From: Elusimicrobia bacterium HGW-Elusimicrobia-1
GTDB taxonomy: Bacteria > Elusimicrobiota > Endomicrobiia > PHAN01
NCBI GenBank assembly: GCA_002841695.1
Contig: PHAN01000002.1
Location: 90,807-154,806, forward strand
Direction of reading: 5' to 3'
Length of the DNA: 64,000 nt
Positions 40,028 through 58,268 of this stretch are shown here, one piece after another (within the stretch, counting starts at the first letter, position 1; each line of letters starts with the position of its first letter). A program made the translations under genes and the position numbers. Under the pieces are notes generated by a model, which was not told the DNA's origin, searched no databases, and saw only the letters and a list, made by a program, of their open reading frames with translations.

Positions 40028-40033
40028 AATTTT

Positions 40034-40564: not shown

Positions 40565-43500
40565 ATGATGGTTAAACGGATTTTTGCCGCTATCGGAGTT
40601 TGGTTTTTTTTGACGCTTTGCGTTCTGCGCCCCGCCTTTGCCACAACCAATAATACGATAACCATAGACGCCGCCCTCGCCGACTGGCAAAGCAATGAGG
40701 CGCTCGGCACTTCTTTCGGGCAATTTTATTTCACATGGGATGCGAGCAATTTTTATTTTGCTTATAATCGCGGCGGAACTTTTACCGCTGACCCGGATGT
40801 TGTCTGGATTTATATCAGCACAGTAGCGCCAACATCTACCGCCGGAACTTTTACTTCGGTTGATTGGACTGGCACCCATACACTTCCCTTCCGTGCAGGA
40901 TACGTCTATTTATTCAGGCCCAATGCCGAGTATAAAACCTACAGAAATTGGACCGGCTCGGCTTGGTCGGGAGATTGGGCGGGGAGCGCAACTACAAGCC
41001 AGAATTATGGCAGTGGTATAGTAGAGATAAAAATACCCAGAGCAGATATCGGCAACCCTTCTTCAATCAGGGTTACCATGTATATCACTAACGGGTCAAA
41101 TAACTATGTTTTTGGAACTACCCCGAGGGAAAATCCCAATGGCGCGACGGGAAGGTTGATGGGTTTGTCTTGGTATTATCCTAATTGCTCATCCACGGGA
41201 GTGTTCCCGAATTTAATTAGGTACAGATATCCGGGGGTTGTTATTGCTGATGTGTCGCCAAATGCAGGCGCGGCCGGGAATGATTATGTCACACTGTATA
41301 ATCCAAATGACGAGGCATTATATTTAAGTAACCTGCAATCGCATCATGGTTTGCCGACCGGATTAGTGTTGCGCTTTAGAACATATAACGGAGCAACGGG
41401 AACAAATAAAACACTGACTGTGGTTTCTACAAATACGATCTCCTCGCGAGGATTTTCGTTACTCGCATCCGGGACACCGCCGAAAACCGCCGATATAACT
41501 TTTGCTGCTGGGCTGGATACCTCAGATGACGGGGTGGTGATAGCGTATTCCAATACGACAACATTTGGCACCGACACATGGACATTGACCGATCTTTTTG
41601 GATGGGGGGGGCAAACAGTCGCCCTTGAAGGTAGCGCTCCCGCCAATCCTGGCACCGCCGATAGTTTTCAAAGAAAAGCATGGTCAACAACCGCAAGTTC
41701 CGCATCCATGCGTCTTGATGGCGAGGACACATACGCGGGGCATTTCATGGATACACACAACAACTCAAGCGATTTTGTGACCCTGATAAGTTCGTACATT
41801 TCAAATAATAGTTCGGATCCCCGCGAAGGATTCCTCGGCCAGTGCTGGCACATACCGGACAACACCTCCGATTTGGGCGGCATATCAATGCGCAACCCCC
41901 TGACGTATATTTATTTAAACACGCCCACAACTTTTTATGTAGGCAATTATTTTCAAGGAACCGGAAACCCGGGCGATATGTCGGGCGGGACGCTTTATTA
42001 TAAGGCAAAAACGGAACCATCATGGAGTTCCGTTTCTTTTGCCTATGATTCAACATCCGGCAACAATAAATACTGGCGTGCTCTCCTGAATAATTCTTAT
42101 ACAGCGGGGACAACCGTTCAATATTATATCAGCGTAGCATACGCGGACAGCCACGACACCACTCTTCTGTATTACAGCGGCGGACAAAGCAGAAGATGTT
42201 ACGAAACATACATTGCCACGAATACGCCTTCCGAGTTTATTGTTCAGGCGGACGCCGCGCCGGATCCCATAACGCCTACGCTGTCGCGGGCAGATGAGAT
42301 GGGAGCGAAAATTTACGTTACATGGGCAGCCCAGGGCGGGATGGACGGCTACAAAATCTATCGCTCATCCGTATCCGCGATAACGAACGGCAATAGGGGC
42401 GACGCAAGCCACCCCCTCGACGGAACGGCTACGCCGAGCGCCGCGGAATCGTACACTACGTCCGCCCTATTGCCCAATACCACTTACTGGTTCGCCGTAT
42501 GCGCCTATAAAGACGCCGTCGAGGGCGACGTCGGTTCGGCGGTTGCCATACGCACCGCCAGAATCTCGATAGACGGTTCCGCCTCCGACTGGGCGACCTC
42601 CGTGGAGTCGCCGTGGGTCAATGAATCAACGACCACGCTTGCATCCGGCTCCGGCACAGTTCCTTATTACGAATGGTCGTGGCGCGACAAGGCGTGGGAG
42701 CAAAGAACCGATTCCGCTCAGGACGACCGCAATTTCGACCTCAGGAATTTCCGCGTAGCCGCCGACGAGGAATACATTTATTTTTATACGAAATACGACA
42801 ACATCACCGATAAGGATTTTTATCATTTTGCGGTCGCCATAGACACGGGCGGCGCGACGGGATTAAATTGGCTCGGCGACGATTCCAACTCCGACACGAA
42901 CGGCGGCACCGCTATGGGCCTCGGCGGCGAATACGTCGGGGCGCTCAAAGCGGCGGCCATACTGGCTTTCCGCTACATTTCCACAGCCGGCACGGATTTC
43001 AGGATACATATGTACAAAAACGGCGGTTCCGGATGGGACACGCCCGCGCTCACCGGAGCCGGAAACACTGCCTGCTGGCTTACCACCGGCGACGGCGGAT
43101 GGATGGAAGCCAAAGTCCGCCGCTCCGACATAGGCGCCGCCGGAATCAAAACCCTGAAATTCTCCGCCGCGGTTTTCGAGAATCTGTTGGGACTCATAGG
43201 CGACGTGGACTCGACCAAATACTACGCCCCCGACGCACTCGACGCGATGTCCATAGCGCGTATTTCCGCCGCTTCGACCTACAACGATTCGCAGTGGGGT
43301 ATGAACTCCTGGGACGAGGACATATCCGATTCCGACGCGGATTTCTGGGCGCAGGCGCAGATAGACGCCTCGGGCCTCAAAATTAACCAACCTCCATCCG
43401 CGCCGTCTCTTTCGCTTCCCGCCGATGGCGCGGGTGTCGATATATCCACGCCGGCTTTTTCGTGGAGCGACAACGGCGACCCCGATTCTGGCGACGCAGT

Positions 43501-46500
43501 GACTTCGTATATGATAGAGATTTCCACCTCGGCGAATTTTCCGACGCTGGTGCAATGTCGGGTCAACGTCGCGGGGACTTCGTGGACGGTGCCGCAGGGG
43601 GTTTTGGATCAGGGGCAGTACTACTGGCGCGTCAAAGCGCGCGACCGTGGCGGGGCGGCTTCCGTGTCGTCGGCGTCGCGCTCTTTCATCGTGGACACCT
43701 CTCCGCCGGACAAAATCACGAATCTCTCCGCGCTGCCGGGCGATTCCTCCAGTCGGATAAACCTTTCATGGACCGCGCCAGGCGACGACGGCTCCGTCGG
43801 CAATATCACCGGCGGCAAATACCGCGTCAAATGGTCTACATCCGCGGTTTCCGACTGGGACTCGGGGACTTGGACGGACTACGTCAACAAATATTCTCTT
43901 GAGTTCTCCACCGACGCGACTCCGTCGCACACCCACGGGCTGACAATTACCGGCCTGACGGCGGGCGCGTCGTGCCTGCCGTCAGGCGCGACGTATTATT
44001 TCAGAATGTGGACGCGTGACGAAAACGCCAACAACTGGTCGGATATTTCCGTCGGCGCGACGCAGTACTCTCCCGGGTCCCCCGTCGGGCACGCCCACGG
44101 CGACAGAGAAACATTCACGGCGCTGACTTCCGGAGGCGCATACGGCTCGGGAACAAATATCGTCTATGCCAAGACGACCGCCTGCGGCAGATTGTTTTTG
44201 ATACGCGGCGCGTCAAATTTATTTTATGAATACGACATACCCAACGACTTATGGAATTCCAAGGCGACACTTCCTGCCGCGGCCGGCACCGGTTCGGCTA
44301 TGGTCTGGGTCTCCACGGGCACGGAGGCCGGACAGTCGTGGCTTTACGCCATTCGCGGCGGCGCTCAAGACCATTTTTACCGTTATAACATAGCGGAGGA
44401 TTATTGGCAGACGATGGCCAATTTGCCCGATGCCGTCGCGGGCGGCGCGGCGATGGTGTGGACCGGCGGCGCCGATATATTCGTGTCCAGTCCCGCAGCC
44501 GGCGGGCCGTTCTGGCGATACAACATACCCAACAACAGGTGGAACAACGTTGCCGACGGAGGCGACCCCGCCGATTACGGCGTGGCCTTCGGATTGGGCG
44601 GCGGGCTTACATGGGACGGAACATACGTTTACGGCCTGCGCGGCGGCACTCTGAAGACGTTCAAAAGATATTCTCCGTCGGGAGACGCCTGGACCGACCT
44701 GACCGGCGCTCCGGAGAACGTCGGCGCGGGCGGCTCGCTGCTTTACACCGGCGGCAACTCTATTTACGCCATAAGAGGCGGAGGTAACACCGACCTTTGG
44801 CATTACGACATCGAGACGAGTTCTTGGGTAGTCCTTCCCAATCTTCCCTCCCCGGTAGGCACTAATACCGGCAATCGTCTGGCGTATCATTCCGACAACG
44901 GCGCTCTGGACCATCTTTATATCTGGCGCGGTGCGACGGCCAATGACTTGTGGTGTTTTCGGCGGGACATAACCGCCCCGTCGGCGATAGGCGATCTTAC
45001 GGCTTCCGTGGTGGACGGCTCCTGTGTCGCAATTCGTCTTGAATGGACGGCACCCTACGGCGACGGCACCGAAAACGGCCTCACGGAGACGTCGCAGTTC
45101 TGGATACAGTATTCGGATATGGACGTCGGCTGGAGCCGCGCAAACGCCCAGGTAAAAGTAACGGCCGGCCCAGTCGCCGCCGGCGCGCCCTGCGTTTACG
45201 ATATTAGCGTGCCGCATTGGGGGGTAAGTTACTATTTCAAAATATGGACGGGCGACAAGGTCAAAAACTGGTCTTCGTCATCAAACTCCGGCGGTCCCAT
45301 ATCGGTCACAACTACAAAAACGCTCTCCGGAAAAATCACTAACTCCGAAACAGGACAGCCCATTCAGGGAGTGGGCGTGGGACTGTCCGGTTTCAGGAAC
45401 GGCCGTACGTTTACCGACGCGGGGGGAAATTACTCGTTCACCGTGCCGGTCTGCCGACAGTACATCGTGATGCCGTCGAGCGCGGCTCTGCATTTTACCA
45501 CGGCCACGGCAAGCGGCATAGACTCTTCCTATCCCGACCGCTACGAGTTTTCCTCGTTCCCCAACGACCGCAGCGACCTCGACTTCGTGGGGCATCCGAC
45601 TTACGGCAACCTTTATTATTCCACGGACACCCTTACGACCACCGACATCGTCGGAACCACAAAGAAAATGTCGATAAGATTCACCGCGAACGACACCCGC
45701 CCGTACAACCGCGTCTACACCTATAATTCGACCGCCGCCGGCAATGATTCTTACGTGTTCGAGTTGCGCGGCGACGATGGCGATGGCTATCCCGGCATTC
45801 TTTTGTCTTCATCCACCGCGAATATATACAAAAACGACGGCTGGCATTACGCCACCGGCGCGTGGTCTCTCACAAAAGGAACCACATATCATATGGTGAT
45901 ATACTCCACTTACACCGCGGCAACCAACTATAGAATAAGAAAATCCGCGCCGCTTTCGTTCAACCGCCCCACAGACGCCGAGCCCGACTTCGCGGCAAAT
46001 GTTCTGGATTACGGCTTTGACGACAACCCTGATTTCTGGATGGTCAGGAACTTCACGCCCATCTACTACTTCCACTACGCCGCTCCGCCTTATTACCAGG
46101 AAGGCAATCCCTTCGGCGTAATCTCGTCGGGCGCGTACTATCAGGTGAAGGGTTCGACATGCATAGGCCAGATATTCACCATGGAAAAGTCGTCGGTATC
46201 GGCCAAGGCATTCCACTTCTGGGTAAAACGTTCCGCGGTACAGCCGGAAGACGGCCTTTACTGGTTTCTTCTGGGCCCGAATGACTCGTCCAATGTTTTG
46301 TCATCGGGACTTCTGGCCTCTCCTGAGGCCGTCGCCACCGAATTCAACTGGCACATTTCGGAGCAGATGGTGGAATGCCCGGCGCCGCTTTTGAAAGGAA
46401 GCACATACTGGATAATTCTTAAATCCACCGGCTCAACGTCGGGCTACTACGAGTTCGCCACCCTCAATCATGGAGCCACCGAAACTTACAGGGACGCCAT

Positions 46501-47803
46501 TACCTATCGCGGGGCTGACAGTACCCTTGTCGTCAACTACGGAACGACGTTTGACCCGCGTACCTCCCGCGATGCCATATTCCGCGTGCGTCACTCCACG
46601 GTGGTGACCGGCGGACCAAAAACAATTACGGATTTGGCCGCCGCGACTTCACAGGACGCCGAAGGCGCGGTAGACCTTGACTGGACGTACCCCGGAATTT
46701 GCGGTCACGTGGATTTGCCCATAGGCAGCCGCTACTACATACAGCATTCCACGCATCTGGACGCGCCGTTTAACTGGAATGTGGACAATGCTCAGACGGT
46801 AATCTCCACCGGACCGGTTCTTGTGGGGGAACATCAGTTCTACACCAAGATGTCCTTGGACGAAGGCAACACTTATTATTTCACCGTCTGGTACTGGCAT
46901 TCTGATTTTAACGTCACATCTCTTGCCTCCAACGTCGCGACGTCGTGGGCGTCTCTTATAGCGCCCGCGGCCGTAACGAACCTCACCGCGCTTCCCGCTT
47001 TGCGCGGACGTTCCATCGATCTGGCCTGGACGGCTCCCGGCGACAACGTAATGACCGGCGACATAACAGGCGGCGCGTACCGTCTGAAATATTCCACTTA
47101 TGTCGACGGAGGCGATTCGTTCTGGAACGGCGGCGACTGGACCGACCGCACTTATAAGTATGAGATGATATGGTCGACGGATACCTCGCCCGGTCAGGAT
47201 GAGGCGCTCAACATAACCGCGCTTTCGCCCGGCACGACTTATTATTTCCGGCTTTGGACCCGCGACCGCTTCGAAGACAACTGGTCGAACATTTCAAACG
47301 GGGCCACATCGTGGGCGCAGGTGGTAAATCTTTCCGTCTACGTTCTTGATTCGTCCACTTACAATTTCGGAGCCGTGCCCACTCAAATATCGACCGTGTC
47401 GCTGAACGGAATAATCGTCCGCAACGACGGCAACGTAAATGCGTCCTATTTGTTGCGCATCGCCACCGGCACAGTGCCTCCGGCCAACACTATCTGGGAT
47501 ACATCCACGACTATCGGCGCCAACAGATTCGTGTTAAAAACAATGTTCAAAAACGCCCAGCCGCTCGACGGAGATTTCGGCGCGGCCGCGGGAGACGACG
47601 TGCTCACGCTTGAAGATATTTACGCCACCGGTGTCAACTTTTCCGACGGCACTCACGAAGGCCGCTACATAGAGCCGTTTTTGGCGGCTCCGCTTTTGTC
47701 CGACACGACTTTATGGTTCCGTCTCTCCACGCCGCTTTCCACATCGACCACCGAATATCAGACCATACCGGTGGTAATTACAAGCGAGGAGACGTACCCG
47801 TAA
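40565..47803 (+). CDS. Giant (2412 aa) secreted multidomain surface protein: CBM9/DOMON-like N-terminal domain, FN3 domains, probable beta-propeller repeats
   Basis: Signal peptide MMVKRIFAAIGVWFFLTLCVLRPAFA; N-terminal TITIDAALADWQSNE...FYFTWDASNFYFAY; FN3 signatures TTYWFAVCAYKD, GQYYWRVKARDRGG, TYYFRMWTRDEN, TYYFRLWTRDRF; repeated LYAIRGG / YAIRGGG segments. Confidence 0.8.
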   Translation: MMVKRIFAAIGVWFFLTLCVLRPAFATTNNTITIDAALADWQSNEALGTSFGQFYFTWDASNFYFAYNRGGTFTADPDVVWIYISTVAPTSTAGTFTSVDWTGTHTLPFRAGYVYLFRPNAEYKTYRNWTGSAWSGDWAGSATTSQNYGSGIVEIKIPRADIGNPSSIRVTMYITNGSNNYVFGTTPRENPNGATGRLMGLSWYYPNCSSTGVFPNLIRYRYPGVVIADVSPNAGAAGNDYVTLYNPNDEALYLSNLQSHHGLPTGLVLRFRTYNGATGTNKTLTVVSTNTISSRGFSLLASGTPPKTADITFAAGLDTSDDGVVIAYSNTTTFGTDTWTLTDLFGWGGQTVALEGSAPANPGTADSFQRKAWSTTASSASMRLDGEDTYAGHFMDTHNNSSDFVTLISSYISNNSSDPREGFLGQCWHIPDNTSDLGGISMRNPLTYIYLNTPTTFYVGNYFQGTGNPGDMSGGTLYYKAKTEPSWSSVSFAYDSTSGNNKYWRALLNNSYTAGTTVQYYISVAYADSHDTTLLYYSGGQSRRCYETYIATNTPSEFIVQADAAPDPITPTLSRADEMGAKIYVTWAAQGGMDGYKIYRSSVSAITNGNRGDASHPLDGTATPSAAESYTTSALLPNTTYWFAVCAYKDAVEGDVGSAVAIRTARISIDGSASDWATSVESPWVNESTTTLASGSGTVPYYEWSWRDKAWEQRTDSAQDDRNFDLRNFRVAADEEYIYFYTKYDNITDKDFYHFAVAIDTGGATGLNWLGDDSNSDTNGGTAMGLGGEYVGALKAAAILAFRYISTAGTDFRIHMYKNGGSGWDTPALTGAGNTACWLTTGDGGWMEAKVRRSDIGAAGIKTLKFSAAVFENLLGLIGDVDSTKYYAPDALDAMSIARISAASTYNDSQWGMNSWDEDISDSDADFWAQAQIDASGLKINQPPSAPSLSLPADGAGVDISTPAFSWSDNGDPDSGDAVTSYMIEISTSANFPTLVQCRVNVAGTSWTVPQGVLDQGQYYWRVKARDRGGAASVSSASRSFIVDTSPPDKITNLSALPGDSSSRINLSWTAPGDDGSVGNITGGKYRVKWSTSAVSDWDSGTWTDYVNKYSLEFSTDATPSHTHGLTITGLTAGASCLPSGATYYFRMWTRDENANNWSDISVGATQYSPGSPVGHAHGDRETFTALTSGGAYGSGTNIVYAKTTACGRLFLIRGASNLFYEYDIPNDLWNSKATLPAAAGTGSAMVWVSTGTEAGQSWLYAIRGGAQDHFYRYNIAEDYWQTMANLPDAVAGGAAMVWTGGADIFVSSPAAGGPFWRYNIPNNRWNNVADGGDPADYGVAFGLGGGLTWDGTYVYGLRGGTLKTFKRYSPSGDAWTDLTGAPENVGAGGSLLYTGGNSIYAIRGGGNTDLWHYDIETSSWVVLPNLPSPVGTNTGNRLAYHSDNGALDHLYIWRGATANDLWCFRRDITAPSAIGDLTASVVDGSCVAIRLEWTAPYGDGTENGLTETSQFWIQYSDMDVGWSRANAQVKVTAGPVAAGAPCVYDISVPHWGVSYYFKIWTGDKVKNWSSSSNSGGPISVTTTKTLSGKITNSETGQPIQGVGVGLSGFRNGRTFTDAGGNYSFTVPVCRQYIVMPSSAALHFTTATASGIDSSYPDRYEFSSFPNDRSDLDFVGHPTYGNLYYSTDTLTTTDIVGTTKKMSIRFTANDTRPYNRVYTYNSTAAGNDSYVFELRGDDGDGYPGILLSSSTANIYKNDGWHYATGAWSLTKGTTYHMVIYSTYTAATNYRIRKSAPLSFNRPTDAEPDFAANVLDYGFDDNPDFWMVRNFTPIYYFHYAAPPYYQEGNPFGVISSGAYYQVKGSTCIGQIFTMEKSSVSAKAFHFWVKRSAVQPEDGLYWFLLGPNDSSNVLSSGLLASPEAVATEFNWHISEQMVECPAPLLKGSTYWIILKSTGSTSGYYEFATLNHGATETYRDAITYRGADSTLVVNYGTTFDPRTSRDAIFRVRHSTVVTGGPKTITDLAAATSQDAEGAVDLDWTYPGICGHVDLPIGSRYYIQHSTHLDAPFNWNVDNAQTVISTGPVLVGEHQFYTKMSLDEGNTYYFTVWYWHSDFNVTSLASNVATSWASLIAPAAVTNLTALPALRGRSIDLAWTAPGDNVMTGDITGGAYRLKYSTYVDGGDSFWNGGDWTDRTYKYEMIWSTDTSPGQDEALNITALSPGTTYYFRLWTRDRFEDNWSNISNGATSWAQVVNLSVYVLDSSTYNFGAVPTQISTVSLNGIIVRNDGNVNASYLLRIATGTVPPANTIWDTSTTIGANRFVLKTMFKNAQPLDGDFGAAAGDDVLTLEDIYATGVNFSDGTHEGRYIEPFLAAPLLSDTTLWFRLSTPLSTSTTEYQTIPVVITSEETYP

Positions 47804-47912
47804 AGGGCAGTGGTTAGTGGCGAGTGGTTAGTGGATAGAAAGGGCAGTGGTTAGTTTTTTGTTTTTACTATCCACTATTCACTAACCACTCGCCACTATA
47901 CACTAGCCACTT
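47804..47912. repeat. P2 hairpin (agtggttagtggatag arms around T-rich loop), terminator-like, downstream of giant gene
   Basis: gggcagtggttagtggcgagtggttagtggatagaaagggcagtggttagttttttgtttttactatccactattcactaaccactcgccactata. Confidence 0.7.
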
Positions 47913-47932: not shown

Positions 47933-48883
47933 ATGAAAAAATTCTCATCGACAGGGTCATTGTTTATTCTCTTGTTTATCGTTTTTACTATCCACTACCC
48001 ACTAACCACTAACCACTGTCTTTACGCCGCCGGTCTCTCGTCTCCCAACGCCTCGATGTATCTGGGTAACCTTAAAATCGGCCAGACGTATTCACTCAGA
48101 CAACTGCTGGGCTACCCATTCAAAGCCACCTACAAAGGACGCTCAATGGCCGACCTGTCCATAAGCGTGATCGCGCTGTCCACCGCGACATCCGACGGAT
48201 ACGAACCCATCCCGTCCAACGACTGGATAGAAATCGAACGCTCGCATTTCTCTCTCGATCCGGGCCAGACCGCCGAAACCGACATCCTCATAAAAATCCC
48301 CGACGACACCGCGCATCTTGACAAAAAATATATCGTCATAATACAGCCACAGTCGGGCGCGCCGCGCGCCAGCGGAGCGGGCATTGTTTTCGGCACGGCG
48401 CTCAGGTGCCAGTTGCGCCTCGACATAGCCGCGCTTCCTCCCACGCCGGACGAAATCCGGCAGTTACGGCGCCTTCGGCACGGACAGTCGGTCGGTGTGG
48501 TTGTGTCTCCGGAAAGAATTTTCGTAAACGAAATCGAGGCGGGAAAAAAGATAGACGTCAAAAAAACTTTCGGCGATGTTATAAAAATAGTGAACTCGTC
48601 GGATTTCGACGTAGAGGCCGTCATAGAGTCCGCCGACCCCGCCAAGTTCGGGATGTTCGCCCCGTCGGGTTATGAAACCGCCCCCGATCACAAATGGCTT
48701 GTGCCCGCAAAAAGAAAAATCAAGATTCAGAAAAACCGCATAGCCGAGGCGCCGGTTACCATAAACATTCCTTCCGGCCCGGAACACGAGGGGAAAAGCT
48801 ACTATTTCGCCATTGCCGTAACCGTCAAATCGCCCATAAGAGAAGTCAATCATCTGGTCAGATTCTTTGTGGATATGAAGTAG
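47933..48883 (+). CDS. Secreted protein A1 of duplicated two-gene cassette (unknown function)
   Basis: ATG 47933 with GGAGGA 5 nt upstream (track start 47921 is TTG); leader SLFILLFIVFTIHYPLTTNHCLYAA; paralogous to 51140..52039 (NLKIG, GYEPxP, HLxKKY, ISAPSGY shared). Confidence 0.7.
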   Translation: MKKFSSTGSLFILLFIVFTIHYPLTTNHCLYAAGLSSPNASMYLGNLKIGQTYSLRQLLGYPFKATYKGRSMADLSISVIALSTATSDGYEPIPSNDWIEIERSHFSLDPGQTAETDILIKIPDDTAHLDKKYIVIIQPQSGAPRASGAGIVFGTALRCQLRLDIAALPPTPDEIRQLRRLRHGQSVGVVVSPERIFVNEIEAGKKIDVKKTFGDVIKIVNSSDFDVEAVIESADPAKFGMFAPSGYETAPDHKWLVPAKRKIKIQKNRIAEAPVTINIPSGPEHEGKSYYFAIAVTVKSPIREVNHLVRFFVDMK

Positions 48884-48925
48884 CAGTGGTTAGTGAAATA
48901 AAAAAAAGTGGTTAGTGGATAGTAA
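48884..48925. repeat. P2 arm copy
   Basis: gcagtggttagtgaaataaaaaaaagtggttagtggatagt. Confidence 0.6.
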
Positions 48926-48948
48926 AAATGAAAAAGGGGGGGAATAGT

Positions 48949-49326
48949 ATGATAGGAGTTAGGAGTTATAAAGATTTAATAATCTGGCGAAAAAGTATGG
49001 AACTTGTAAAAATTGTGTACAAAGCGACCAGTAGTTTCCCGCAAAAAGAATTATTCGGATTGACAAATCAGATGAGAAGGGCAGCCGTATCGATACCTTC
49101 AAATATAGCGGAAGGGCAGGCCAGAAACCATACGAAAGAATTTGTGCAGTTTCTGTATCAGGCGTTGGGCTCCCTGGCGGAACTTGATACACAGGCAATA
49201 ATAGCCAAGGAACTGGGTTATCTAAAAGCAGTGGATAGTGGTGAGTGGATAGAAAGACAAACTGCCGAACTTCAAAAGATGACACACGGCCTACTCAAAA
49301 AACTAACCGCTATAGACAGTGGATAG
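48949..49326 (+). CDS. Four-helix-bundle protein (family formerly called 23S rRNA intervening-sequence protein)
   Basis: SYKDLIIWRKSMELVKIVYK...FGLTNQMRRAAVSIPSNIAEGQAR...ELDTQAIIAKELGYL; AT-rich; start at ATG 48949 after GGGGGG SD preferred over 48928. Confidence 0.8.
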   Translation: MIGVRSYKDLIIWRKSMELVKIVYKATSSFPQKELFGLTNQMRRAAVSIPSNIAEGQARNHTKEFVQFLYQALGSLAELDTQAIIAKELGYLKAVDSGEWIERQTAELQKMTHGLLKKLTAIDSG

Positions 49327-49410
49327 TGGCGAGTGGTTAGTGGATAGAAAGGGCAGTGGTTAGTTTTTTGTTTTTACTATCCACTATTCACTAACCACTA
49401 ACCACTGCCC
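49318..49410. repeat. P2 hairpin, terminator-like
   Basis: gggcagtggttagttttttgtttttactatccactattcactaaccactaaccactgccc (13-bp perfect outer stem). Confidence 0.7.
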
Positions 49411-49668
49411 CTAAAAAACCCTTGACTTTATATAATTATTTTGCTATATACTGTATATCAAACAGGAAGCATACTTCTTAATTTAACATCTTGAATAAAA
49501 TGAGACGTGGGTTGGCCCGCCGAAGAAGGGCAGGAGGTGAAAAAAGGTCGTATGATTCAATCTTTAAAAAGCAATAGAGAAAAAGAGCTCGCGGCGTCGG
49601 TGGTGACGGAGTGCGCACCGTCATCCGTGACAGGCGCGGGCAAAAATCAAAAGGAAGAGGGAGGATTT

Positions 49669-50349
49669 ATGAAGAAGCTATTTTTTATGCTTCTGGCCGC
49701 CTCCGTCGTGGGGCTTTTTGCCTCGACGGTAAAGGCAGCCGACTGGGACAACGCCTACGTCGTAGTGCGTTGCACGGTTAACGTGTCGGTTGATGTCGCC
49801 CCCACAGGCACAGACAACGCCTGGGTGCCATACATCAACGACGCGCCGGGTACCGGACCGTACAACGGCGGTGTCAATCAGATATATGTGTCGACGGGTG
49901 TGGCCGTGAGGAACACAAGTTCTGGTGCCATAACCAACTGGACGCTCCATTTGGTATCGACGCAGACCTATTCGGCTACGCCTGATATAGCCGATTTCGC
50001 CAACACGACGACCGCATATCCGGACTGGACGTACGGCAACAATCTTACGGCCAATGGCCCAAACAAGATTGTAATCGCCGCTGTTTTCAAGAGTAATCCC
50101 GCCGTCTTGGGCGATTACAACGACCTGGACGTGCTCTTCTCCACGGGCACGGTCTATAAGACAGGTTCGGCAGATTTAGGCCCCGCTGCCGACGAATATT
50201 TCGGCGCTGTAGCCAGCGGTAACAACCTGAATATGGTCGCGCCGACAGACACAAGGAACCTGTACTTCAGGGTTCTGACGCCCTCGGCCGTTACGGACAG
50301 TATGTATCGTAAGTTCGAGGTATTGGTCAAGGCCGGTTTAGGTCTATAA
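49669..50349 (+). CDS. Secreted protein B1 of duplicated cassette (beta-sandwich-like, unknown function)
   Basis: ATG 49669 after aaggaagagggagg; signal peptide MKKLFFMLLAASVVGLFASTVKA; paralog of 52272..52955 (AYVVVRCTVNV vs AYITLRCTATV; VRNTSSGAITNWTL vs VRNSGVGSIANWTL). Confidence 0.7.
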   Translation: MKKLFFMLLAASVVGLFASTVKAADWDNAYVVVRCTVNVSVDVAPTGTDNAWVPYINDAPGTGPYNGGVNQIYVSTGVAVRNTSSGAITNWTLHLVSTQTYSATPDIADFANTTTAYPDWTYGNNLTANGPNKIVIAAVFKSNPAVLGDYNDLDVLFSTGTVYKTGSADLGPAADEYFGAVASGNNLNMVAPTDTRNLYFRVLTPSAVTDSMYRKFEVLVKAGLGL

Positions 50350-50630
50350 AGATTAGTCACAGCAGTTTAAGGTCAGCGTAAGTTGGTCTTTGGTATCCCG
50401 CCGTAGTCCGGCGGGACTCCATAGGTTAACAAAATTACTCCCCGTAGAGGTAGACTTCCGTGTCCGCCATCATGGACGCGAATGTTTTCGGGTGTCATTT
50501 TCCCGAGACGTTTGCGACCCCGGAATTATCGGTGGCGCCGATGAAGTCGGCGCCCCATCTGTTTAAAGATTATTTTGCCGTCGCGGCTATGCGCCCGACG
50601 GCTTTTGTTTTTTATAGCCGAATAAACGAT

Positions 50631-51000
50631 TTTGCCGGCGGATGCGGTTGTCTATTCTCTACGGGGAGAAAAAACATCACCCATTCGCCGGCCTTCTTTT
50701 TTGCGGAGCGGAGGTCTATCTCTACGGGGAGAAACGCCTGCCGCTCCGCTTACTATTTTGCAGAAACGCGTCGGGAAAATCCCCCTGTATCCCCCTTTAA
50801 AAAGGGGGAATATCGCACCTCCCCCTTTGGAAAAGGGGGACTGAGGGGGATTTCAAAAAACCATTTTGCCGGCGGACCGGAAGTTTGCCTCTACGGGGAG
50901 TGCATCACTACCGGTCCCGCCGGCTTACTTTTTTTTGCGGACGGACACGAACGTCGAACCTCTACGGGGAGGCAGTACGCATCGCCCGTCCGCATCTTTT
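50631..51000 (+). repeat. Array of four ~70-bp hairpin units with conserved loop motif CTCTACGGGGAG and covarying stems, interrupted by a P1 element (50775-50853)
   Basis: Loops at 50657, 50721, 50890, 50961; stems gccggcg/cgccggc, gcggagcgg/ccgctccgc, gccggcggaccgg/ccggtcccgccggc, gcggacgg/ccgtccgc; each unit followed by a T run; reverse-complement motif ctccccgtagag at 50438. Confidence 0.7.
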
Positions 51001-51056
51001 TCGGGGGGCGTACGAGCCGCCCCTTCAACTATCGGGGGCGGACACGGTTGTCTATT

Positions 51057-51090
51057 ATCGGAGTTTATCCCCGCGAAGGCGGGGAGGGAG
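51057..51090 (+). promoter_or_regulatory. Conserved leader motif TCGGAGTTTATCC-hairpin-GGGAGGGAG, ~50 nt upstream of start codon
   Basis: tcggagtttatccccgcgaaggcggggagggag; copies at 56353-56384 and 58101-58136 with compensatory stem changes. Confidence 0.5.
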
Positions 51091-51139
51091 AAAAACACCG
51101 CCGCGTACCGCCCCCATATTTTCTTATCGGAGAAATATT

Positions 51140-52039
51140 ATGACTAAAAATGTTTTCACCCCGCTTGCTCTGCTGATTTTATCGGCATTTATTGCGCCGC
51201 GCGGTTTGGCGGCGGCCTCGATTGCCACCAATTACTCCGACGTTTACGTGGACAATCTTAAAATCGGCGGCTCCTACAATCTTACGGCCACCGCCAATTA
51301 TCCTATGTGGATATTGTGGAAAGGCGGCGACAGGGCGCTGATAAAAGTGACGCCGAAACTGCCTTTCAAGGAAGTTATGCGCGCGGGATACGAACCCGTG
51401 CCCGATATTTCGTGGATAACGGTTTCAAAAAAAGAGTTTGAACTGATGAGCGACGAAACGGCCAATATCGACGTAACGGTAAACGTGCCAAACGACCCGA
51501 AACATCTGGGCAAAAAATATCAGGCGCTCGTCGAGGTTTCGGCAAATCCGCCCAAGGGTTCGCCCGGCGTCTCGATTGCCCTTGCCGTAAACGGGAAGAT
51601 ACTTATGAGCGTGGCCGGCAAGCCGCCGACCGAAGAGGAATTGTCCGAATTAAGGCGCGAACGAATACGCGCAAGGCGGGGGGTGATCATTGAGCCGGAG
51701 CGGCTTGAGGCATCGGTAAAAGCGGGGGGCATCAACGCCGAATTAACGGCCGACGAACCGCTTAAAATTATCAATTCGTCGAGGGAAAAAGTGTCCGTGA
51801 CGATAGAATCCGTCGCGCCCGAAGTCGCCGGGATATCGGCGCCGTCGGGATATGCCAAGGGCGCGGCCAAGGACATAAGTTTTTCAAAGACGTCGGCGTC
51901 TCTTGAGCCGGACAAGATTGAAAATATCGGAGTGTTTCTCAGGAAAGTGCCGTCGGACAAGTCGTTTTATATTGTCAGAATAACCATAAAGTCGCAGACG
52001 CTTGAAGTCGCAAAATTCGTGAGGGTTTATGTCAACTGA
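51140..52039 (+). CDS. Secreted protein A2 of duplicated cassette (paralog of 47933..48883)
   Basis: ATG 51140 preferred over track start 50885, which lies in the repeat array; signal peptide MTKNVFTPLALLILSAFIAPRGLAAA. Confidence 0.7.
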   Translation: MTKNVFTPLALLILSAFIAPRGLAAASIATNYSDVYVDNLKIGGSYNLTATANYPMWILWKGGDRALIKVTPKLPFKEVMRAGYEPVPDISWITVSKKEFELMSDETANIDVTVNVPNDPKHLGKKYQALVEVSANPPKGSPGVSIALAVNGKILMSVAGKPPTEEELSELRRERIRARRGVIIEPERLEASVKAGGINAELTADEPLKIINSSREKVSVTIESVAPEVAGISAPSGYAKGAAKDISFSKTSASLEPDKIENIGVFLRKVPSDKSFYIVRITIKSQTLEVAKFVRVYVN

Positions 52040-52042
52040 GAA

Positions 52043-52162
52043 AAAGTGGGTAGTGGATAGTGACGAGTGGTTATGGGTAGTGGATAGTGGCGAGTGGTTA
52101 GTGGATAGAAAGGGCAGTGGTTAGTTTTTTGTTTTTACTATCCACTAATCACTATCCACTCT
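52043..52162. repeat. P2 hairpin cluster, terminator-like
   Basis: agtgggtagtggatagtgacgagtggttatgggtagtggatagtggcgagtggttagtggatagaaagggcagtggttagttttttgtttttactatccactaatcactatccact. Confidence 0.7.
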
Positions 52163-52271
52163 CTTTAAAGGAGGCAGTATGAACGGTTTAAGTCGTTTCA
52201 AAGATGTCCCGCAAACGGTGCGGGAAACAAAATCAAGTCCCCCGACGGAAACGCGGGGACAGGGAGGCAGT

Positions 52272-52955
52272 ATGTTTTACAAAGTGAAATCCCGCATAGC
52301 GGGATTCGGAAAGTTGTTGTTGTTATCGGCGGCAGCCGTTGGTCTGGGCGCCATTTCGGCGTCTCAGGCGCAAGCGGCCACGACCGCATCGGCGTATATC
52401 ACGCTGAGATGCACGGCCACCGTCGCCATAGAATTGTTCAGCGGCGGGTCACTTCCGACCTCCGCGACCTTCTATGATTTCGGCGAAGTCGGGGCCGCGG
52501 GCGTTTACGTCTCGGCTAATCCCGTGGGCGTAAGAAACAGCGGAGTGGGTTCCATAGCCAATTGGACGCTCGACATCACGGAAATTACGCAGGACGGCGG
52601 AGCCAGCGCGTGGGTCATAGGAAACACGCCGGGGCTTAACAGAATGACGCTTCACGCAAAGTTCTCGACGAACACGCTTACGTCAGGCGACTTTGATGTG
52701 GCGCTGGATACTGTTTCCACGACGGCTCAGGGCGCCAAGGCCTATCGCCTCGACGTGGTGAACGGCAGCCATTTCTATGACCAGATAGCATCTTATGTCG
52801 AGTCGTCATTCAGTCCCAACGCGTCCAAGGTGCTTCCGGCCAGCTATAGCGCGACGAAGTCCGAGCGTCATATGTGGCTCAAGCTCCAGACGCCTACGGC
52901 ATTTGAAAACGCCAACGCCCTTACAGCCATAACGCTGAGGGTCAGCGCTTACTAA
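52272..52955 (+). CDS. Secreted protein B2 of duplicated cassette (paralog of 49669..50349); alternative start ATG 52179
   Basis: GGGAGG before ATG 52272; signal peptide MFYKVKSRIAGFGKLLLLSAAAVGLGAISASQAQA. Confidence 0.65.
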   Translation: MFYKVKSRIAGFGKLLLLSAAAVGLGAISASQAQAATTASAYITLRCTATVAIELFSGGSLPTSATFYDFGEVGAAGVYVSANPVGVRNSGVGSIANWTLDITEITQDGGASAWVIGNTPGLNRMTLHAKFSTNTLTSGDFDVALDTVSTTAQGAKAYRLDVVNGSHFYDQIASYVESSFSPNASKVLPASYSATKSERHMWLKLQTPTAFENANALTAITLRVSAY

Positions 52956-53077: not shown

Positions 53078-56000
53078 GTGAAAAGGAATAAATCTCTTTC
53101 CACTATCTTCTTAAGAGCGCTGCTGACAGGGATTATAGCGGCTCACGGGGCTCCTATGCCCTCGATGCTGTACGCCGCCCCCGTTACGCTTCGCGGCTCA
53201 CCGCCTTACGCGGGACCGCCGAACAGAGTCACGTCCATCATCGCCGCTCCCGATTTTTCAGCGCCGGAAGCGGAGGGGAAAATAAAGTTGAACTGGACGG
53301 CTCCGTCGGACGCCGGAGGTCTGGACGTTTTCTCCTACATAGTCAAGTACGCGACTTTTTCCGTCGCGGATATGGGAGGGGACAAAGACGCCTGGTGGGA
53401 TCATCCGCAATGTATAACCGCCTTTGATCCGGAACTAAACGTTCGCTGGGGCAAAAAATCTCTCGTGTCGTCGCAAGGAAACGAAATAATATCGGTATCC
53501 GGCCTTGAATCCGGAACGTATTATTATTTCGCGGTCAAGTCCGTCGACAGATACCACAGATTCTCCGTCTGGGACATACCTTACGACGGTGTATCCTCGC
53601 AAAGCAACGCTTACGCCACCACTCCGCCGTGGCAGCCCTACATAGTCACAACGCTTGCGGCAGAACCTATGGCGGCAATAAGAGCGGCGGCAATGCTTGA
53701 ATGGTTCGCGCCTTTGTTTGTGGAGAATAATCCGCCTTACGAAATTCTTCCCGGTCACATAAAACAACTCGGACAGTACTGCATCCAGTATTCTACGGCG
53801 CCTCCGCCCGAGCCCGTCAACAGACCCAACCAGCCGAACAACTGGGCGGCTTCTCAAAGAATCATAGTATCCACACGCAACGTCCAATCGGGCGACCTGC
53901 AAAACTACGTCCTTACGGGACTCTCGCACAATACCACCTATTACGTCCATCTTTTCACCAAAAACGAATGGCCTAACAAGTGGTCTTATGCGTCATACCC
54001 AGTCACTACGGTGCGGCCTTACATAGACCTCTCGCCCGTGGACGATCTCGTCGCTACCGCGTCGGCGTCCGCCGACAACGATATAGCCAGTTTCGTCACG
54101 CTTTCGTGGGAAAATCCCGAAAACGAGCAGTTCTTCGCCGGCGCGCGCGTGGGATATTCCACGTCGTCGTATCCGTCATCGCCCGATTCCGGAAATTATT
54201 TTGATGTAGAACCTCTTGCGTCCGGCACATCCACCGACTACGCGCATATCCGTTTGCTGCCGCGGCATAATTATTATTACTCCGTTTGGGCGTACGACTC
54301 CAACCACTTCTACTCCTCGCCGCGCAATGCGCAAACGTTCACATCGTTCGATATAAATCCGCCCGCCGGCGTCAAAAATATAACGTCCTTCGTCGATGTT
54401 TCTACCGACGGAGACGAAGACGCCTATGCCATACGCCTGGCGTGGAGCGCGCCGGACGCATCGGCCGCTATGCTTTACAGGAATATCGACTTTGACAGAG
54501 TCAGGGTCTATGTCAGCACGACCTCGGCCGACCCCGCCGACCACGTGTATCTCTCGACGGCCTCCGCCTCCGAGACGGCGTTTATTCATTCAGGCGCGGC
54601 GCCCTACACGACATACTATTACTCGTTTGCGAGTGTAGACGCAATCTCAAACGAGCAGACGGCCGTAGAGCGCTCGACTCACTCGGTCTATATCTGCGAA
54701 GATCACGTGCCGCCGTCGGCTCCGACTATTGTAACCCATCTCTATACCGCTTCGCGCGAATACGCCGACGGCTGCAAAGTCGCGCTCACGTGGCGAGCTC
54801 CGCCGGAATCGCATTTTGCGCGTATAGTCGCCAGAATATCGCTCGACGGCTTCCCGCTGTCCGTTTCCGACGGCGACGCGCTTACGGAATGGACCGGACT
54901 GCCCGACGCGACCGGCTCCGCGGAATTTAAGCGGCTTGTATCGCTTACCACCAATTACATATCGCTGTTTGCCGTCGCCGAGCGCGGCGCGGCGTCGCGG
55001 CCGGCTAAGGTCGCGGTCTACACTGATATTCCGTGGACGGATACCGTCTCGCCGCACGTGCCGCGCGACGTCAGGATTTCGTCATCGCGCAGGGTTACGT
55101 GGAGCCCCGTGAAATACGACGCTAACCTGGCGGCCATACCCAACTATGCGACGCCGCGCACTGACCAGATTTACTTCTACGAAATCCTCAAATCTACGTC
55201 GATGAAAGGCCCCTGGATCGTCGGAGACAGAATGAATCCGTCGCTGACTTTCTGCGACATCGCCGCGGCGGCGACCGGATATTACAAGATACGGGCCGTC
55301 GACGCGGGACGCAACTGCGCCGACTCATACGCCTTCGACCTCGACGGCAACATATACGTCGCCGCGGGCGATTCAAGCTACGTGAAAGTGCCGGCGGACA
55401 TCGTTTCGTCCTTGCGCACGCCGTCGAATCCGGCCAAGGATTCGCATCTGCTTTCGCTTTCGCGCGTTCCCGCCGACGAGAAAGGCATAATCTATAAGTC
55501 CGTGGAGTTCCGCTCGTCGGCCATATCCGAGACGTCCGACGCTATGCGGCTCCAAGACGTCCCCGGGTTCTCTCTGGGCGCGCCCGGAGCGAAACTGGCG
55601 TTCAGCTATGATACGGACAGAGATTCCGTCGCCGTCGCCGCGCCCTCGCGCAAAGCGCCGTCGCGCCCGGAGATACAGTCGCAGCTCGGAGTGTTCTATT
55701 ACAACGGGGTCGAGTGGCAGAGGATAAATCTCTCGGCTGCCGCGCCCGACGGCTATGTTATCTCGTCCGTGCGGTTCGCGGGCAAATATCAACTCCGCCG
55801 CGCCGCCTCTACGGGCGAGTTCGCTTTCTACGATGCCGTCCCGCGAATCATCACGCCCAATAACGACGGTATCAACGACAGGGCGATGTTCCGCTTTGCC
55901 AATCCGCAGGGACGCTCGATTACGCTTAAAATTTACGACATCAATTCCGTTCTTGTAAGAGACATAGGCGAGACAACGGCCGCGTCGGACACGCCCGGCG

Positions 56001-56119
56001 AGCATATATTCTGGGACGGTCTCGACGACAACAATCGCATCGTCGCGCCCGGCGTCTATGTTTATCAGTTGGAACTTGAAGAAAAAATTATCAACGGCAC
56101 CATAGTGGTGGCCAGGTAA
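53078..56119 (+). CDS. Large FN3-containing surface protein with C-terminal FlgD-Ig/T9SS type-B-like domain (GTG start)
   Basis: 1013 aa; FN3 signatures GTYYYFAVKSVDRYHRFS, TTYYVHLFTKNEW; C-terminus RIITPNNDGINDRAMFRF...ITLKIYDINSVLVRDI...WDGLDDNNRIVAPGVYVYQL...TIVVAR. Confidence 0.75.
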   Translation: MKRNKSLSTIFLRALLTGIIAAHGAPMPSMLYAAPVTLRGSPPYAGPPNRVTSIIAAPDFSAPEAEGKIKLNWTAPSDAGGLDVFSYIVKYATFSVADMGGDKDAWWDHPQCITAFDPELNVRWGKKSLVSSQGNEIISVSGLESGTYYYFAVKSVDRYHRFSVWDIPYDGVSSQSNAYATTPPWQPYIVTTLAAEPMAAIRAAAMLEWFAPLFVENNPPYEILPGHIKQLGQYCIQYSTAPPPEPVNRPNQPNNWAASQRIIVSTRNVQSGDLQNYVLTGLSHNTTYYVHLFTKNEWPNKWSYASYPVTTVRPYIDLSPVDDLVATASASADNDIASFVTLSWENPENEQFFAGARVGYSTSSYPSSPDSGNYFDVEPLASGTSTDYAHIRLLPRHNYYYSVWAYDSNHFYSSPRNAQTFTSFDINPPAGVKNITSFVDVSTDGDEDAYAIRLAWSAPDASAAMLYRNIDFDRVRVYVSTTSADPADHVYLSTASASETAFIHSGAAPYTTYYYSFASVDAISNEQTAVERSTHSVYICEDHVPPSAPTIVTHLYTASREYADGCKVALTWRAPPESHFARIVARISLDGFPLSVSDGDALTEWTGLPDATGSAEFKRLVSLTTNYISLFAVAERGAASRPAKVAVYTDIPWTDTVSPHVPRDVRISSSRRVTWSPVKYDANLAAIPNYATPRTDQIYFYEILKSTSMKGPWIVGDRMNPSLTFCDIAAAATGYYKIRAVDAGRNCADSYAFDLDGNIYVAAGDSSYVKVPADIVSSLRTPSNPAKDSHLLSLSRVPADEKGIIYKSVEFRSSAISETSDAMRLQDVPGFSLGAPGAKLAFSYDTDRDSVAVAAPSRKAPSRPEIQSQLGVFYYNGVEWQRINLSAAAPDGYVISSVRFAGKYQLRRAASTGEFAFYDAVPRIITPNNDGINDRAMFRFANPQGRSITLKIYDINSVLVRDIGETTAASDTPGEHIFWDGLDDNNRIVAPGVYVYQLELEEKIINGTIVVAR

Positions 56120-56162: not shown

Positions 56163-56274
56163 ACAAGAAGCAAGATAAACCGTCATTCTGAGCGAAGCGA
56201 AGAATCCTCGTCATCTTCCGGCGAAGAATCCTCGCCATACTCTAACAAGATCCTTCGCTTCGCTCAGGATGACA
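56163..56274. repeat. Palindromic element (gtcattctgagcgaagcgaag ... cttcgcttcgctcaggatgac)
   Basis: Near-identical copy at 58838-58957. Confidence 0.7.
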
Positions 56275-56352
56275 GATAACAAGAATTTTATGGACAATAA
56301 CAAATATATTTATCGGCGCGTCGCTTCATCGGCGGGCAAACCCAAGTCAATC

Positions 56353-56384
56353 TCGGAGTTTATCCCGCCACAGGCGGGAGGGAG
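56353..56384 (+). promoter_or_regulatory. Conserved leader motif (second copy)
   Basis: tcggagtttatcccgccacaggcgggagggag, 53 nt upstream of ATG 56437. Confidence 0.5.
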
Positions 56385-56436
56385 ATTCTCTGTTTTGTCC
56401 GCCGACGAGGCGATGCCGTCTTCAAAGGAGCATTTT

Positions 56437-58074
56437 ATGAATACACTTATTAAAATCATCAAAAAATTTCCGCCGCCGTCGTCATTGTTTATTCTCTTGT
56501 TTATCGTTTTTACTATTCACTATTCACTATCCACTATTCACCCTCTTTACGCCGCATTCGAGGATATTTCCGTCGGCGGACGTCCCGCGGCTTTTTCCGG
56601 CGCGTATACAGCGGTCGAAGGCGACGCGTATTCCATCTACTACAATCCCGCGGCGCTTGCGGGTATGGCAAGGGCCGAGTTCGGCGCGCAATATTCCAAA
56701 CTTCATACGGGGCTTACGGACGGTTCGGAACTCTCCAACGCTTTTTTCGGCGTGGCGCAGCCGCTTAAATTCGGCTCGGCCGATTACGGCACAATCGGCG
56801 CGGGATGGATAAGATTCGACCTTGCGGAACTTTATCAGGAAAATACTATAATCTTGTCCTGGGCGCGTGACATTGTAAAGAACAAACTTTCCTTCGGATT
56901 CGGCGCCAAAATGCTCTCTATTACCTACGGCGAAAACGACTACACCAAAAACGCCTTCGACAACGAGGGCAACACGACCGGCGCGGCGGACCCGCTTTTC
57001 AACTATGGCTATATCAAATCCGCCGCCGACTTCGACGCCGGAATAAGATACGCTTTCGCCAAAAATTACGCCGTGGCCGCCGTCGCGCAGAATCTGGCGG
57101 GCGCAAATATATCGCTCGTCAACGACCCCAATGTCGCGCTGCCGCGTCGTTACCGTTTCGGCCTTGCTCACACCGGCAAGGCCTACGCGCTTTCGGCCGA
57201 TGTCGCGGGCGCTTCGGACTCTTCGGTAGTGCGCGGAATGGTCGGCGTCGAAAAAAGTTTCGACTTCGGTGGCGCCCTGAGGGCCGGGCTGGGAATGGGC
57301 ACCGACGGATGGGCCAATATCGCCGGCGGTTTCGGATTCAAAGCCGACGCCCTCAGCTTCGATTACGGCCTCGCATGGCCGTTGTCGGGCATAAAGAACA
57401 CTTCAGGCAGTCACAGGGTCTCGGTGAATTTCAAATTCGGGCCCGTTATGCGCCACCCCGAATCCGACTCGGAAACGCAGGTGCGCCTGGCGCAGGAAAT
57501 TACCGCCCGCAAAGAGTACGAGCAGAAATACAGGGTGTCCGAGATAGAACTCGCCCGCGCTAGAGAAGAGATAAGACAGCTCAAAAATCAGATAGAGGAA
57601 TTGCTCAAGCGTCCGTCGGCTCCCATACCGGCGCCAAGAGAAATCGCGTCGCCCAAGCCGACGGTTACGGAGACGCCCGCGGCCGTCAAACCCGGCGTAA
57701 CGCCGGCCGCGCCCGCTATGCCCACCGATATCGACGCTTTGAGAGCCGCTTATGCCAAAGAATTCAACCAGTATCAGCGCGACGCTTCCAAAATGGATAT
57801 TAAGCAGCGCATCGCGGCGGTTGACGTCATAGTCGCGCGTTATCAGGGCAAGATAAAGATAACCGAAGCCGTCGACGAACAGATGATACTCAGGAATGAA
57901 TTCGCCGCGCAGACCAAGTTCTATAACGACGCGCTTACTTACTACAAACGTCTCGTACGGCAGGGTATATCCGTCGAGGAGCGCAAGGACATACTCAATC
58001 GCATGATAACCAAGTACCAGGTGCTCGGCGTCGATGTAACTGTCGCCAAAGAGGAGCTTAAGACGGTAAAATAA
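56437..58074 (+). CDS. Beta-barrel OMP (PorV/PorQ- or PorP/SprF-like) with C-terminal coiled-coil/Pro-rich extension
   Basis: ATG 56437 after aaaggag (track start 56269 lies in repeat); leader SLFILLFIVFTIHYSLSTIHPLYAA; motif GRPAAFSGAYTAVEGDAYSIYYNPAALAG; C-terminal EIELARAREEIRQLKNQIEELLKRPSAPIPAP. Confidence 0.6.
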   Translation: MNTLIKIIKKFPPPSSLFILLFIVFTIHYSLSTIHPLYAAFEDISVGGRPAAFSGAYTAVEGDAYSIYYNPAALAGMARAEFGAQYSKLHTGLTDGSELSNAFFGVAQPLKFGSADYGTIGAGWIRFDLAELYQENTIILSWARDIVKNKLSFGFGAKMLSITYGENDYTKNAFDNEGNTTGAADPLFNYGYIKSAADFDAGIRYAFAKNYAVAAVAQNLAGANISLVNDPNVALPRRYRFGLAHTGKAYALSADVAGASDSSVVRGMVGVEKSFDFGGALRAGLGMGTDGWANIAGGFGFKADALSFDYGLAWPLSGIKNTSGSHRVSVNFKFGPVMRHPESDSETQVRLAQEITARKEYEQKYRVSEIELARAREEIRQLKNQIEELLKRPSAPIPAPREIASPKPTVTETPAAVKPGVTPAAPAMPTDIDALRAAYAKEFNQYQRDASKMDIKQRIAAVDVIVARYQGKIKITEAVDEQMILRNEFAAQTKFYNDALTYYKRLVRQGISVEERKDILNRMITKYQVLGVDVTVAKEELKTVK

Positions 58075-58136: not shown

Positions 58137-58172
58137 AAAGAACACCCGCTGTCCCGCCGGAAAAGCAAATTA

Positions 58173-58268
58173 GAAATCCCCCTGTATCCCCCTTTTAAAA
58201 GGGGGGTTGAAAGAGATTGTCGGGTGAAGTTCATCCCCCTTTGAAAAAGGGGGAAAGAGGGGGATTTA
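58173..58268. repeat. P1 palindromic element
   Basis: gaaatccccctgtatcccccttttaaaaggggggttgaaag...catccccctttgaaaaagggggaaagagggggattt. Confidence 0.7.

Follow-up and report, generated by a model that had tools for sequence, protein, structure and literature searches.

The stretch of DNA analysed here, a window of 64,000 nt from the groundwater genome of Elusimicrobia bacterium HGW-Elusimicrobia-1, carries two pairs of genes for exported proteins, A1/B1 and A2/B2. The B module encoded by these genes is used in two forms, as a free subunit with an extra N-terminal strand and, without that strand, as the tail of giant adhesin-like proteins. This layout would be that of a tip adhesin whose pilin domain has no donor strand, accompanied by strand-bearing subunits. 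In the reading that we favour, to which we assign a probability of roughly 0.45, A serves B modules as their cognate partner or chaperone, while the strand of free B completes other B modules, tethering or extending the adhesin.

The giant surface protein of the window is encoded at 40565-47803 (+ strand, 2412 aa) and is rich in Fn3, Kelch and LTD domains (Pfam fn3 1.1e-15, plus other immunoglobulin (Ig)-like domains). Its C-terminal B module lies at 47324-47785 (+; residues 2263-2416 of the open reading frame (ORF)), where the hidden Markov model (HMM) of the B family scores 72.3 bits (E 6e-21). The hmmsearch match spans profile positions 38-199 of 206, leaves 5 residues after the domain, and aligns the family motifs YNFG, VRND, FKxAxPxxGDF and LWFRLxTP. 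Large proteins ending in B are also encoded upstream of A in L009, L017, L019, L022, L024, L026, L028 and L049, and the giants reach 2400-3800 aa. In 9/9 of the large proteins over which the full B module aligns, from the window and these eight loci, it is placed after an Fn3 domain and stops 2-7 residues before the stop codon. In all nine the module begins at profile position 38-44 and is therefore without the AYVVVRCT strand of free B. This N-terminal strand, at profile positions 27-37, is carried by free B and missing from every one of the large proteins.

Word-index searches with B returned few relatives; a full HMMER profile scan of 1.84 billion representatives gave a family of 113 clusters (50% identity, E ≤ 1e-3), in which nearly all proteins are 130-290 aa long. 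B is a beta module of ~165 residues. Every free B has a signal peptide ending in A-x-A, followed at once by an amphipathic strand and then by a core that ends at the C-terminus (RNLYFRVxTPxAVTD...VxVxA). The strand reads AYVVVRCTVxVSVDV in the Elusimicrobia clades, has alternating hydrophobic residues family-wide, and is among the best-conserved parts of B. In the AlphaFold2 (AF2) model of B1 the core is a beta-sandwich with a predicted local distance difference test (pLDDT) score of 70-86, and the N-terminal strand is unplaced, at less than 50. The modelled core looks like a larger sandwich of the jelly-roll type. Comparison of 76 B members with Pfam gave no consistent family match, and the B profile found nothing among PDB sequences at E ≤ 10, although entry 9i25 includes a long WxL chain.

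The four genes all lie on the + strand. A1 (47933-48883, 316 aa) encodes an exported protein of tandem PapD/MSP/ASH-like Ig fold and A2 (51140-52039, 299 aa) its diverged paralog, of clade 'A2'. B1 (49669-50349, 226 aa) is the B module in its free form; it has a signal peptide and, at nt 49738-49779, the N-terminal extension ADWDNAYVVVRCTV. B2 (52272-52955, 227 aa) is its diverged paralog, of clade b3, with the extension ATTASAYITLRCT (nt 52377-52415). A first-pass annotation of this DNA had described these ORFs as two paralog pairs, all with signal peptides and of no recognisable family, and each part of that description held. Pairwise comparison gave 31% identity over 287 residues for A1 and A2 (E 2e-37) and 26% over 223 residues for B1 and B2 (E 1e-8), while the family profiles score A2 at 3e-92, B1 at 7e-57 and B2 at 2e-50. 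Signal peptides and lipoboxes were judged by reading the sequence: all four N-termini have the basic start, hydrophobic core and A-x-A-like site of Sec-type signal peptides, and none has a lipobox Cys. No Pfam, NCBIfam or PHROG family was matched at threshold by any of the four, and their exact NCBI copies (PKN02116.1, PKN02118.1, PKN02120.1 and PKN02121.1) are all labelled 'hypothetical protein'.

The A family comprises 45 homolog clusters at 90% identity, the named ones all proteins from Elusimicrobia or Endomicrobia metagenome-assembled genomes (MAGs). The family alignment shows a strongly conserved mature N-terminus, GGLSSPxGxMYLxNLKIGQxYSL, and a PPTxEEIR linker after domain 1. Modelled by AF2 from this alignment (pLDDT 87.9), A1 consists of two beta-sandwiches (residues ~35-166 and ~188-315) with a connecting helix (172-184), and Foldseek agrees with a tandem PapD/MSP-type fold. 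At fold level A has the two PapD-like Ig domains of periplasmic chaperones. The resemblance of A to WxLIP proteins and to chaperone-usher chaperones is at fold level only. Among 34 A members, Pfam matches were sub-threshold and scattered over Ig-like families (FixG_C in 15/34, fn3_5 in 6/34, WxLIP_PGBD in 2/34 and WxLIP_HBD in 1/34). PapD_N (PF00345) and PapD_C (PF02753) were absent among the families listed at E ≤ 1 for these members and were unmatched for A1 and A2 at E ≤ 0.1. A thus constitutes a family that is new, has the tandem PapD/MSP-type fold and is no sequence member of any chaperone or WxLIP family. The A profile gave weak MSP matches only against PDB sequences (E 0.06-0.9). On inspection of the sequence A has neither a lipobox nor a membrane helix, at the C-terminus or elsewhere, and its signal peptide looks cleavable. 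We also considered B as a diverged A domain; this was ruled out, since hhalign finds no relationship between the two profiles (probability 30% over 35 columns).

The genomic neighbourhood was compared across loci from several sources. From the A side, a scan that took a single genome for each GTDB species yielded 28 loci, of which 19 are from Elusimicrobia, Elusimicrobiota or Endomicrobia MAGs, 2 from Ignavibacteria, 2 from Zixibacteria and 5 from unclassified 'bacterium' MAGs; a B-side metagenome scan with a narrow B alignment gave 15 loci, and direct look-ups contributed L001-L005 and L049. By local HMM annotation A adjoins B in ~22 of the 26 loci with enough sequence, the exceptions being L005, L010 and L012. 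Elusimicrobia loci run from the MerR-receiver regulator through (a giant with a terminal B), A, B and (A2, B2) to the Fn3 protein with its CHU_C/type-B-like tail, a PorV/FadL-like barrel that has a coiled-coil C-terminus, the small tail-only protein, the histidine kinase and the response regulator. L049, from an unrelated metagenome, has the ten-gene order of the window including the A-B/A2-B2 duplication, with a giant of 3845 aa, and L009 has the same duplication, its A2-clade A being paired with a b3-type B. It follows that the duplication is old and not peculiar to the window, and that A1/A2 and B1/B2 are old paralog pairs. Pairing follows clades: A5 stands with b5/6/8/9, A2 with b3, A4 with b2, after which another A follows, and A3 with b1; this last pair has the order B-A and comes from Ignavibacteria, Zixibacteria and a single unclassified locus. 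The identities of A and B co-vary across loci (Spearman 0.61, from non-independent comparisons), and B diverges slightly faster, A being the more conserved in 73% of these non-independent comparisons.

One residue pattern follows the same clades. B1 has a conserved Cys at C35 (~49771-49773) in the N-terminal extension and A1 one at C159 (~48407-48409) in the last strand of domain 1. Cys-bearing A clades pair with Cys-bearing B clades and Ser/Thr A clades with Val B clades, over 3-4 independent clades and with the exception of A2/b3. The pattern is suggestive of a Cys-Cys link from the B extension to the last strand of domain 1 in A, but this idea was set aside, given 3-4 clades and one exception.

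We favour a cognate A partner and strand donation by free B because the B HMM matches the extreme C-terminus of the 2412-aa giant, and because the strand found in free B is missing from the nine large proteins. The good conservation and amphipathic character of the strand, which AF2 leaves unplaced while the core reaches a pLDDT of 70-86, argue in the same direction, as do the recurrence of the order big B, A, B with clade-specific pairing and covarying identities and the cleavable-looking signal peptide of an A protein without lipobox or membrane helix. From these observations we infer A-B binding, strand donation, polymerisation and the cellular location of the components along the following lines. 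A and B would be the cognate core pair of a surface-adhesin display locus in Elusimicrobia, with a reduced form in Ignavibacteria and Zixibacteria. A, exported by Sec, soluble and encoded beside its own B type, would bind newly exported B modules via a beta-edge or by strand complementation and keep them assembly-competent, as a chaperone or adaptor. Free B subunits would place their N-terminal strand in the B module of the giant adhesin, or in that of another B, to form a short stalk or fibre by which the adhesin is carried or tethered. Each of the pairs A1/B1 and A2/B2 would be a specialised set of partner and subunit. Passage across the outer membrane would be usher-independent and may rely on the genes of the locus for a tail like that of the type IX secretion system (T9SS) and for a PorV-like barrel. 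The likeness to a chaperone plus fibre subunit, which the first-pass annotation had raised, is supported.

Several points weigh against this interpretation. The structure model of B is poor (overall pLDDT 58.5), and the A domains look no less like ASH/MSP and generic extracellular Ig domains than like chaperones. No export pore for a fibre was found; as noted at first pass for the adjacent genes, there is no usher, the family PF00577 (~800 aa) being unmatched in the scanned proteins of the window and in related loci whose gene calls carried Pfam results. Certain lineages also retain A without a neighbouring B. In L005 (241-1167), L010 and L012, A genes of the Endomicrobia type (44-45% identity to A1) occur singly, with no B within 8-10 kb, so A may also act independently of B and have an additional role of its own. 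The neighbours of A in L005 are rpmG on one side and a thioredoxin-reductase-like gene on the other, and signal peptidase I is encoded nearby. A more far-reaching version of the favoured reading seems doubtful to us, namely an usher-independent donor-strand system of uncultivated diderm phyla in which A, as a dedicated PapD-like chaperone, loads free B by its N-terminal strand onto the C-terminal B modules of the giants, and the resulting stalk or fibre is exported or anchored via T9SS-like PorV-family barrels.

Some of the genes that flank the two pairs may bear on how such proteins are exported. At the upstream edge of the locus is a regulator with MerR-HTH and receiver domains (39322-39924, +; Pfam MerR_1 2.6e-16, Response_reg 5.3e-22), which is also found immediately ahead of A in L001, L006 and L008 (phmmer 8e-72 to 2e-68). 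On the downstream side, 53078-56119 (+) encodes an Fn3-rich protein of 1013 aa with a T9SS type-B-like (CHU_C) tail (fn3 2.1e-8, CHU_C 1.3e-5, TIGR04131 6.5e-4); its orthologs occur downstream of B in L001, L003, L008, L009, L036, L039-L043, L046 and L049. Large Fn3-rich proteins therefore stand on both sides of the A/B genes, matching their reported position between giant adhesin-like genes. The next gene (56269-58074, +) encodes a PorV/PorQ/FadL-like outer-membrane barrel with a coiled-coil and helical C-terminus (PorV_fam 6.6e-9, at 35.8 bits under the NCBIfam cutoff of 90; Toluene_X 2.7e-4). Its true start is probably the ATG at ~56434, a short way before the repeat-encoded leader, and its orthologs, one of which matches TraF_2, hold the same position in other loci. 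It is followed by a 121-aa protein with little beyond a signal peptide and a T9SS type-A-like tail (58337-58702, +; TIGR04183 1.6e-4), with orthologs after the barrel gene in L001, L008, L036, L039, L042, L043, L046 and L049. A HAMP-HisKA-HATPase sensor kinase (59014-60459, +; Pfam), with orthologs in L001, L008 and L049, marks the downstream edge, and a receiver-domain response regulator (60456-60824, +; phmmer receiver match 1e-23) overlaps its stop codon. No Rfam match was obtained in the whole window, and hence no riboswitch ahead of the locus; a promoter and terminator scan of the window gave nothing interpretable. Among the papers open to search, none ties a system of this kind to these phyla.

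Three times in the window, the gene for a tail-bearing protein is succeeded by one for a small PorV/FadL/TraF_2-like barrel. The pairs are 9528-12215, with a PorZ-like C-terminus (1.3e-14), and 12258-13250, of the PorV/PorQ family (149.5 bits against a cutoff of 90); 13306-15414 and 15661-16623; and 53078-56119 and 56269-58074. This suggests a T9SS-like sorting or attachment system in the Elusimicrobia genome. A Por_Secre_tail protein directly follows A in Ignavibacteria (L029) and Zixibacteria loci, and L032 has, near A-B, genes for a PorV/TraF_2-like barrel and an M12 protease with a tail; A-B is thus accompanied by T9SS-type sorting parts in more than one phylum. The tail domain and the B module are alike in that a small domain-only protein lies beside a large protein with the domain at its C-terminus, and the parallel may reflect a shared principle such as capping, priming or competition.

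These surroundings lend themselves to another explanation, in which B is a new C-terminal sorting or anchoring domain of a T9SS-like route, A is a periplasmic carrier or outer-membrane receptor, and free B proteins are small cargo, decoys or plugs, parallel to the tail-only 121-aa protein. In its favour are the T9SS-like tail, barrel and tail-only genes next to B2, the bona fide PorV/PorQ family protein beside the one with the PorZ-like C-terminus, the neighbours of A in Ignavibacteria, Zixibacteria and L032, and the constant position of the B module at the extreme C-terminus of large proteins. However, the ~165-residue B is unlike the models of T9SS C-terminal domains (CTDs): B1, B2 and the giant gave no match to TIGR04183, TIGR04131, PF18962 or PF13585, while the neighbours 53078-56119 and 58337-58702 match weakly. 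No core T9SS translocon gene was noticed in the window, and to our knowledge no sorting domain has a dedicated two-Ig partner per paralog, which also counts against this explanation. On balance we hold it to be improbable.

An assembly without polymerisation is the other structural alternative. A, free B and the B tail of the giant might form a fixed hetero-oligomer, like that of the WxL clusters, which holds the adhesin on the envelope with A exposed at the surface. The anatomy of the A/B locus fits the logic of the Gram-positive WxL cluster as well as that of chaperone-usher pili. However, A is without a C-terminal membrane helix, WxL (PF13731) is unmatched among the Pfam families listed for the 76 B members, and WxLIP matches fall far under threshold. 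The hosts are diderm, so peptidoglycan surface display is inapplicable, and a static complex would leave the extra N-terminal strand on free B alone unexplained. We regard it as unlikely. It is very improbable that A and B are carbohydrate-binding or starch-utilisation accessory proteins (SusE/F-like) serving the alpha-glucan genes that occupy the first 39 kb of the window. Neither is a lipoprotein and no carbohydrate-binding module (CBM) family scores for A or B; this role was rejected because the locus is not beside amylase genes in other genomes, where it sits among unrelated housekeeping genes.

Repeats are frequent in and around the locus. A gene of the 23S rRNA intervening sequence (IVS)/four-helix-bundle family (48928-49326; PF05635, 1e-37) lies between A1 and B1 and is bracketed by 103-nt direct repeats, 91% identical, at 47795-47897 and 49304-49406; a third copy follows A2 at 52065-52167. 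The gene is missing between A and B in related loci, and therefore it looks like an insertion of a repeat-associated element, outside the system. The repeat-encoded leader that had been attributed to the cassette is real and is confined to A1: the segment 47928-48030 is 82% identical over 103 nt to 56453-56555, in the leader of the barrel protein. The repeat encodes a nearly identical signal peptide (SLFILLFIVFTIHY..L..H.LYAA) for A1 and the PorV-like barrel, and it therefore seems that the leader was copied from one to the other of two genes that are otherwise unrelated. Hairpin repeats, rich in GC, of the type TCCCCCTTTnAAAGGGGGA and REP-like or terminator-like in look, fill intergenic regions at 39952-40460, 50774-50850 and 58171-58264 and create spurious ORFs such as 50460-51143. 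Positions 1-39000 form an alpha-glucan utilisation region, with a 2097-aa amylase/Fn3 protein (5-6298), amylases (32645-35083, - strand, and 36495-38960), a GH31 enzyme (30302-32470, - strand), CBM48-rich proteins (26339-29859), MalK (35289-36392) and a solute-binding protein (21278-22627). The segment 16623-19296 encodes two GGDEF diguanylate cyclases.

The locus bears on the question of how very large Fn3-rich adhesins are displayed in Elusimicrobia and related uncultivated diderms, and its logic joins two systems that are usually kept apart, the chaperone-usher pili of Proteobacteria and the WxL clusters of Firmicutes. Should A be a chaperone or adaptor, strand complementation assisted by an Ig tandem would be far more general than recognised and workable without an usher, and giants with a B-module tail would gain a recognisable 'anchor' signature for annotation. 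An usher-independent donor-strand system, if real, would be a third independent lineage of the type 'Ig-tandem partner plus strand-complemented module', beside those two. Even if the mechanism is wrong, what remains is a pair of new domain families, a conserved locus of 10 genes and a C-terminal module of giants that is now defined.

Chaperone-usher pili have a PapD/FimC-type chaperone, pilins with an N-terminal donor strand and a two-domain tip adhesin. The A/B locus resembles them in its exported tandem-Ig partner, its module-only subunit with a putative donor strand, its giant ending in a module without that strand and its cognate partner-subunit pairs. The E. coli common pilus (ECP) has two chaperones, EcpB and EcpE, and the pairs EcpB/EcpA and EcpE/EcpD would be comparable to A1/B1 and A2/B2. 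Unlike chaperone-usher pili, the locus has no usher, each B paralog has its own A, and the adhesin is 2400-3800 aa long. A and B are also outside PapD_N, PapD_C, Fimbrial and SCPU, the families Fimbrial (PF00419) and SCPU (PF05229) being unmatched among those listed at E ≤ 1 for the 76 B members, and the modelled B core appears to be a larger jelly-roll-type sandwich, in contrast to the ~150-aa incomplete Ig fold of these pili.

The WxL cluster of Firmicutes combines WxLIP (DUF916 + DUF3324, two Ig domains) with one WxL protein of the short and one of the long kind, and in AF2 predictions the WxL sandwich is completed by a strand of WxLIP (PMC10599100; PDB 9i1y, 9i25). As in the definition of that cluster (PMC10599100), module-only small proteins (B1 and B2) occur with a large protein that has the module at its C-terminus (the giant). 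The A/B system differs in its diderm hosts, in the missing peptidoglycan-surface context and in A, in which the WxLIP combination of PF06030, PF11797 and a C-terminal membrane helix was not found. The donor-strand fibres of TasA, CanA, archaeal bundling pili and DUF1102 proteins, unlike the system proposed here, need no Ig-tandem partner. B has no sequence membership among them, Pfam giving no Peptidase_M73/TasA or DUF1102 match for A1, A2, B1, B2 or the 76 B members; the locus is without a SipW-type peptidase, and the B model is too poor to fix the fold. The pairing of a T9SS cargo tail with a PorV/PorP/SprF-type barrel is the neighbour pattern seen three times in the window, and B is like the T9SS CTDs in being strictly C-terminal in large proteins. 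It is unlike them in sequence and is twice their size, and A is without a T9SS counterpart. Judged by profile searches, A and B thus fall outside the chaperone-usher, WxL, TasA-like and T9SS-CTD families, and what they have in common with these systems lies in fold-level and architectural features alone. In the favoured reading we would class the locus with those for the strand-complementation assembly of surface proteins, in which an Ig-tandem partner would assist, with the families A and B themselves being new.

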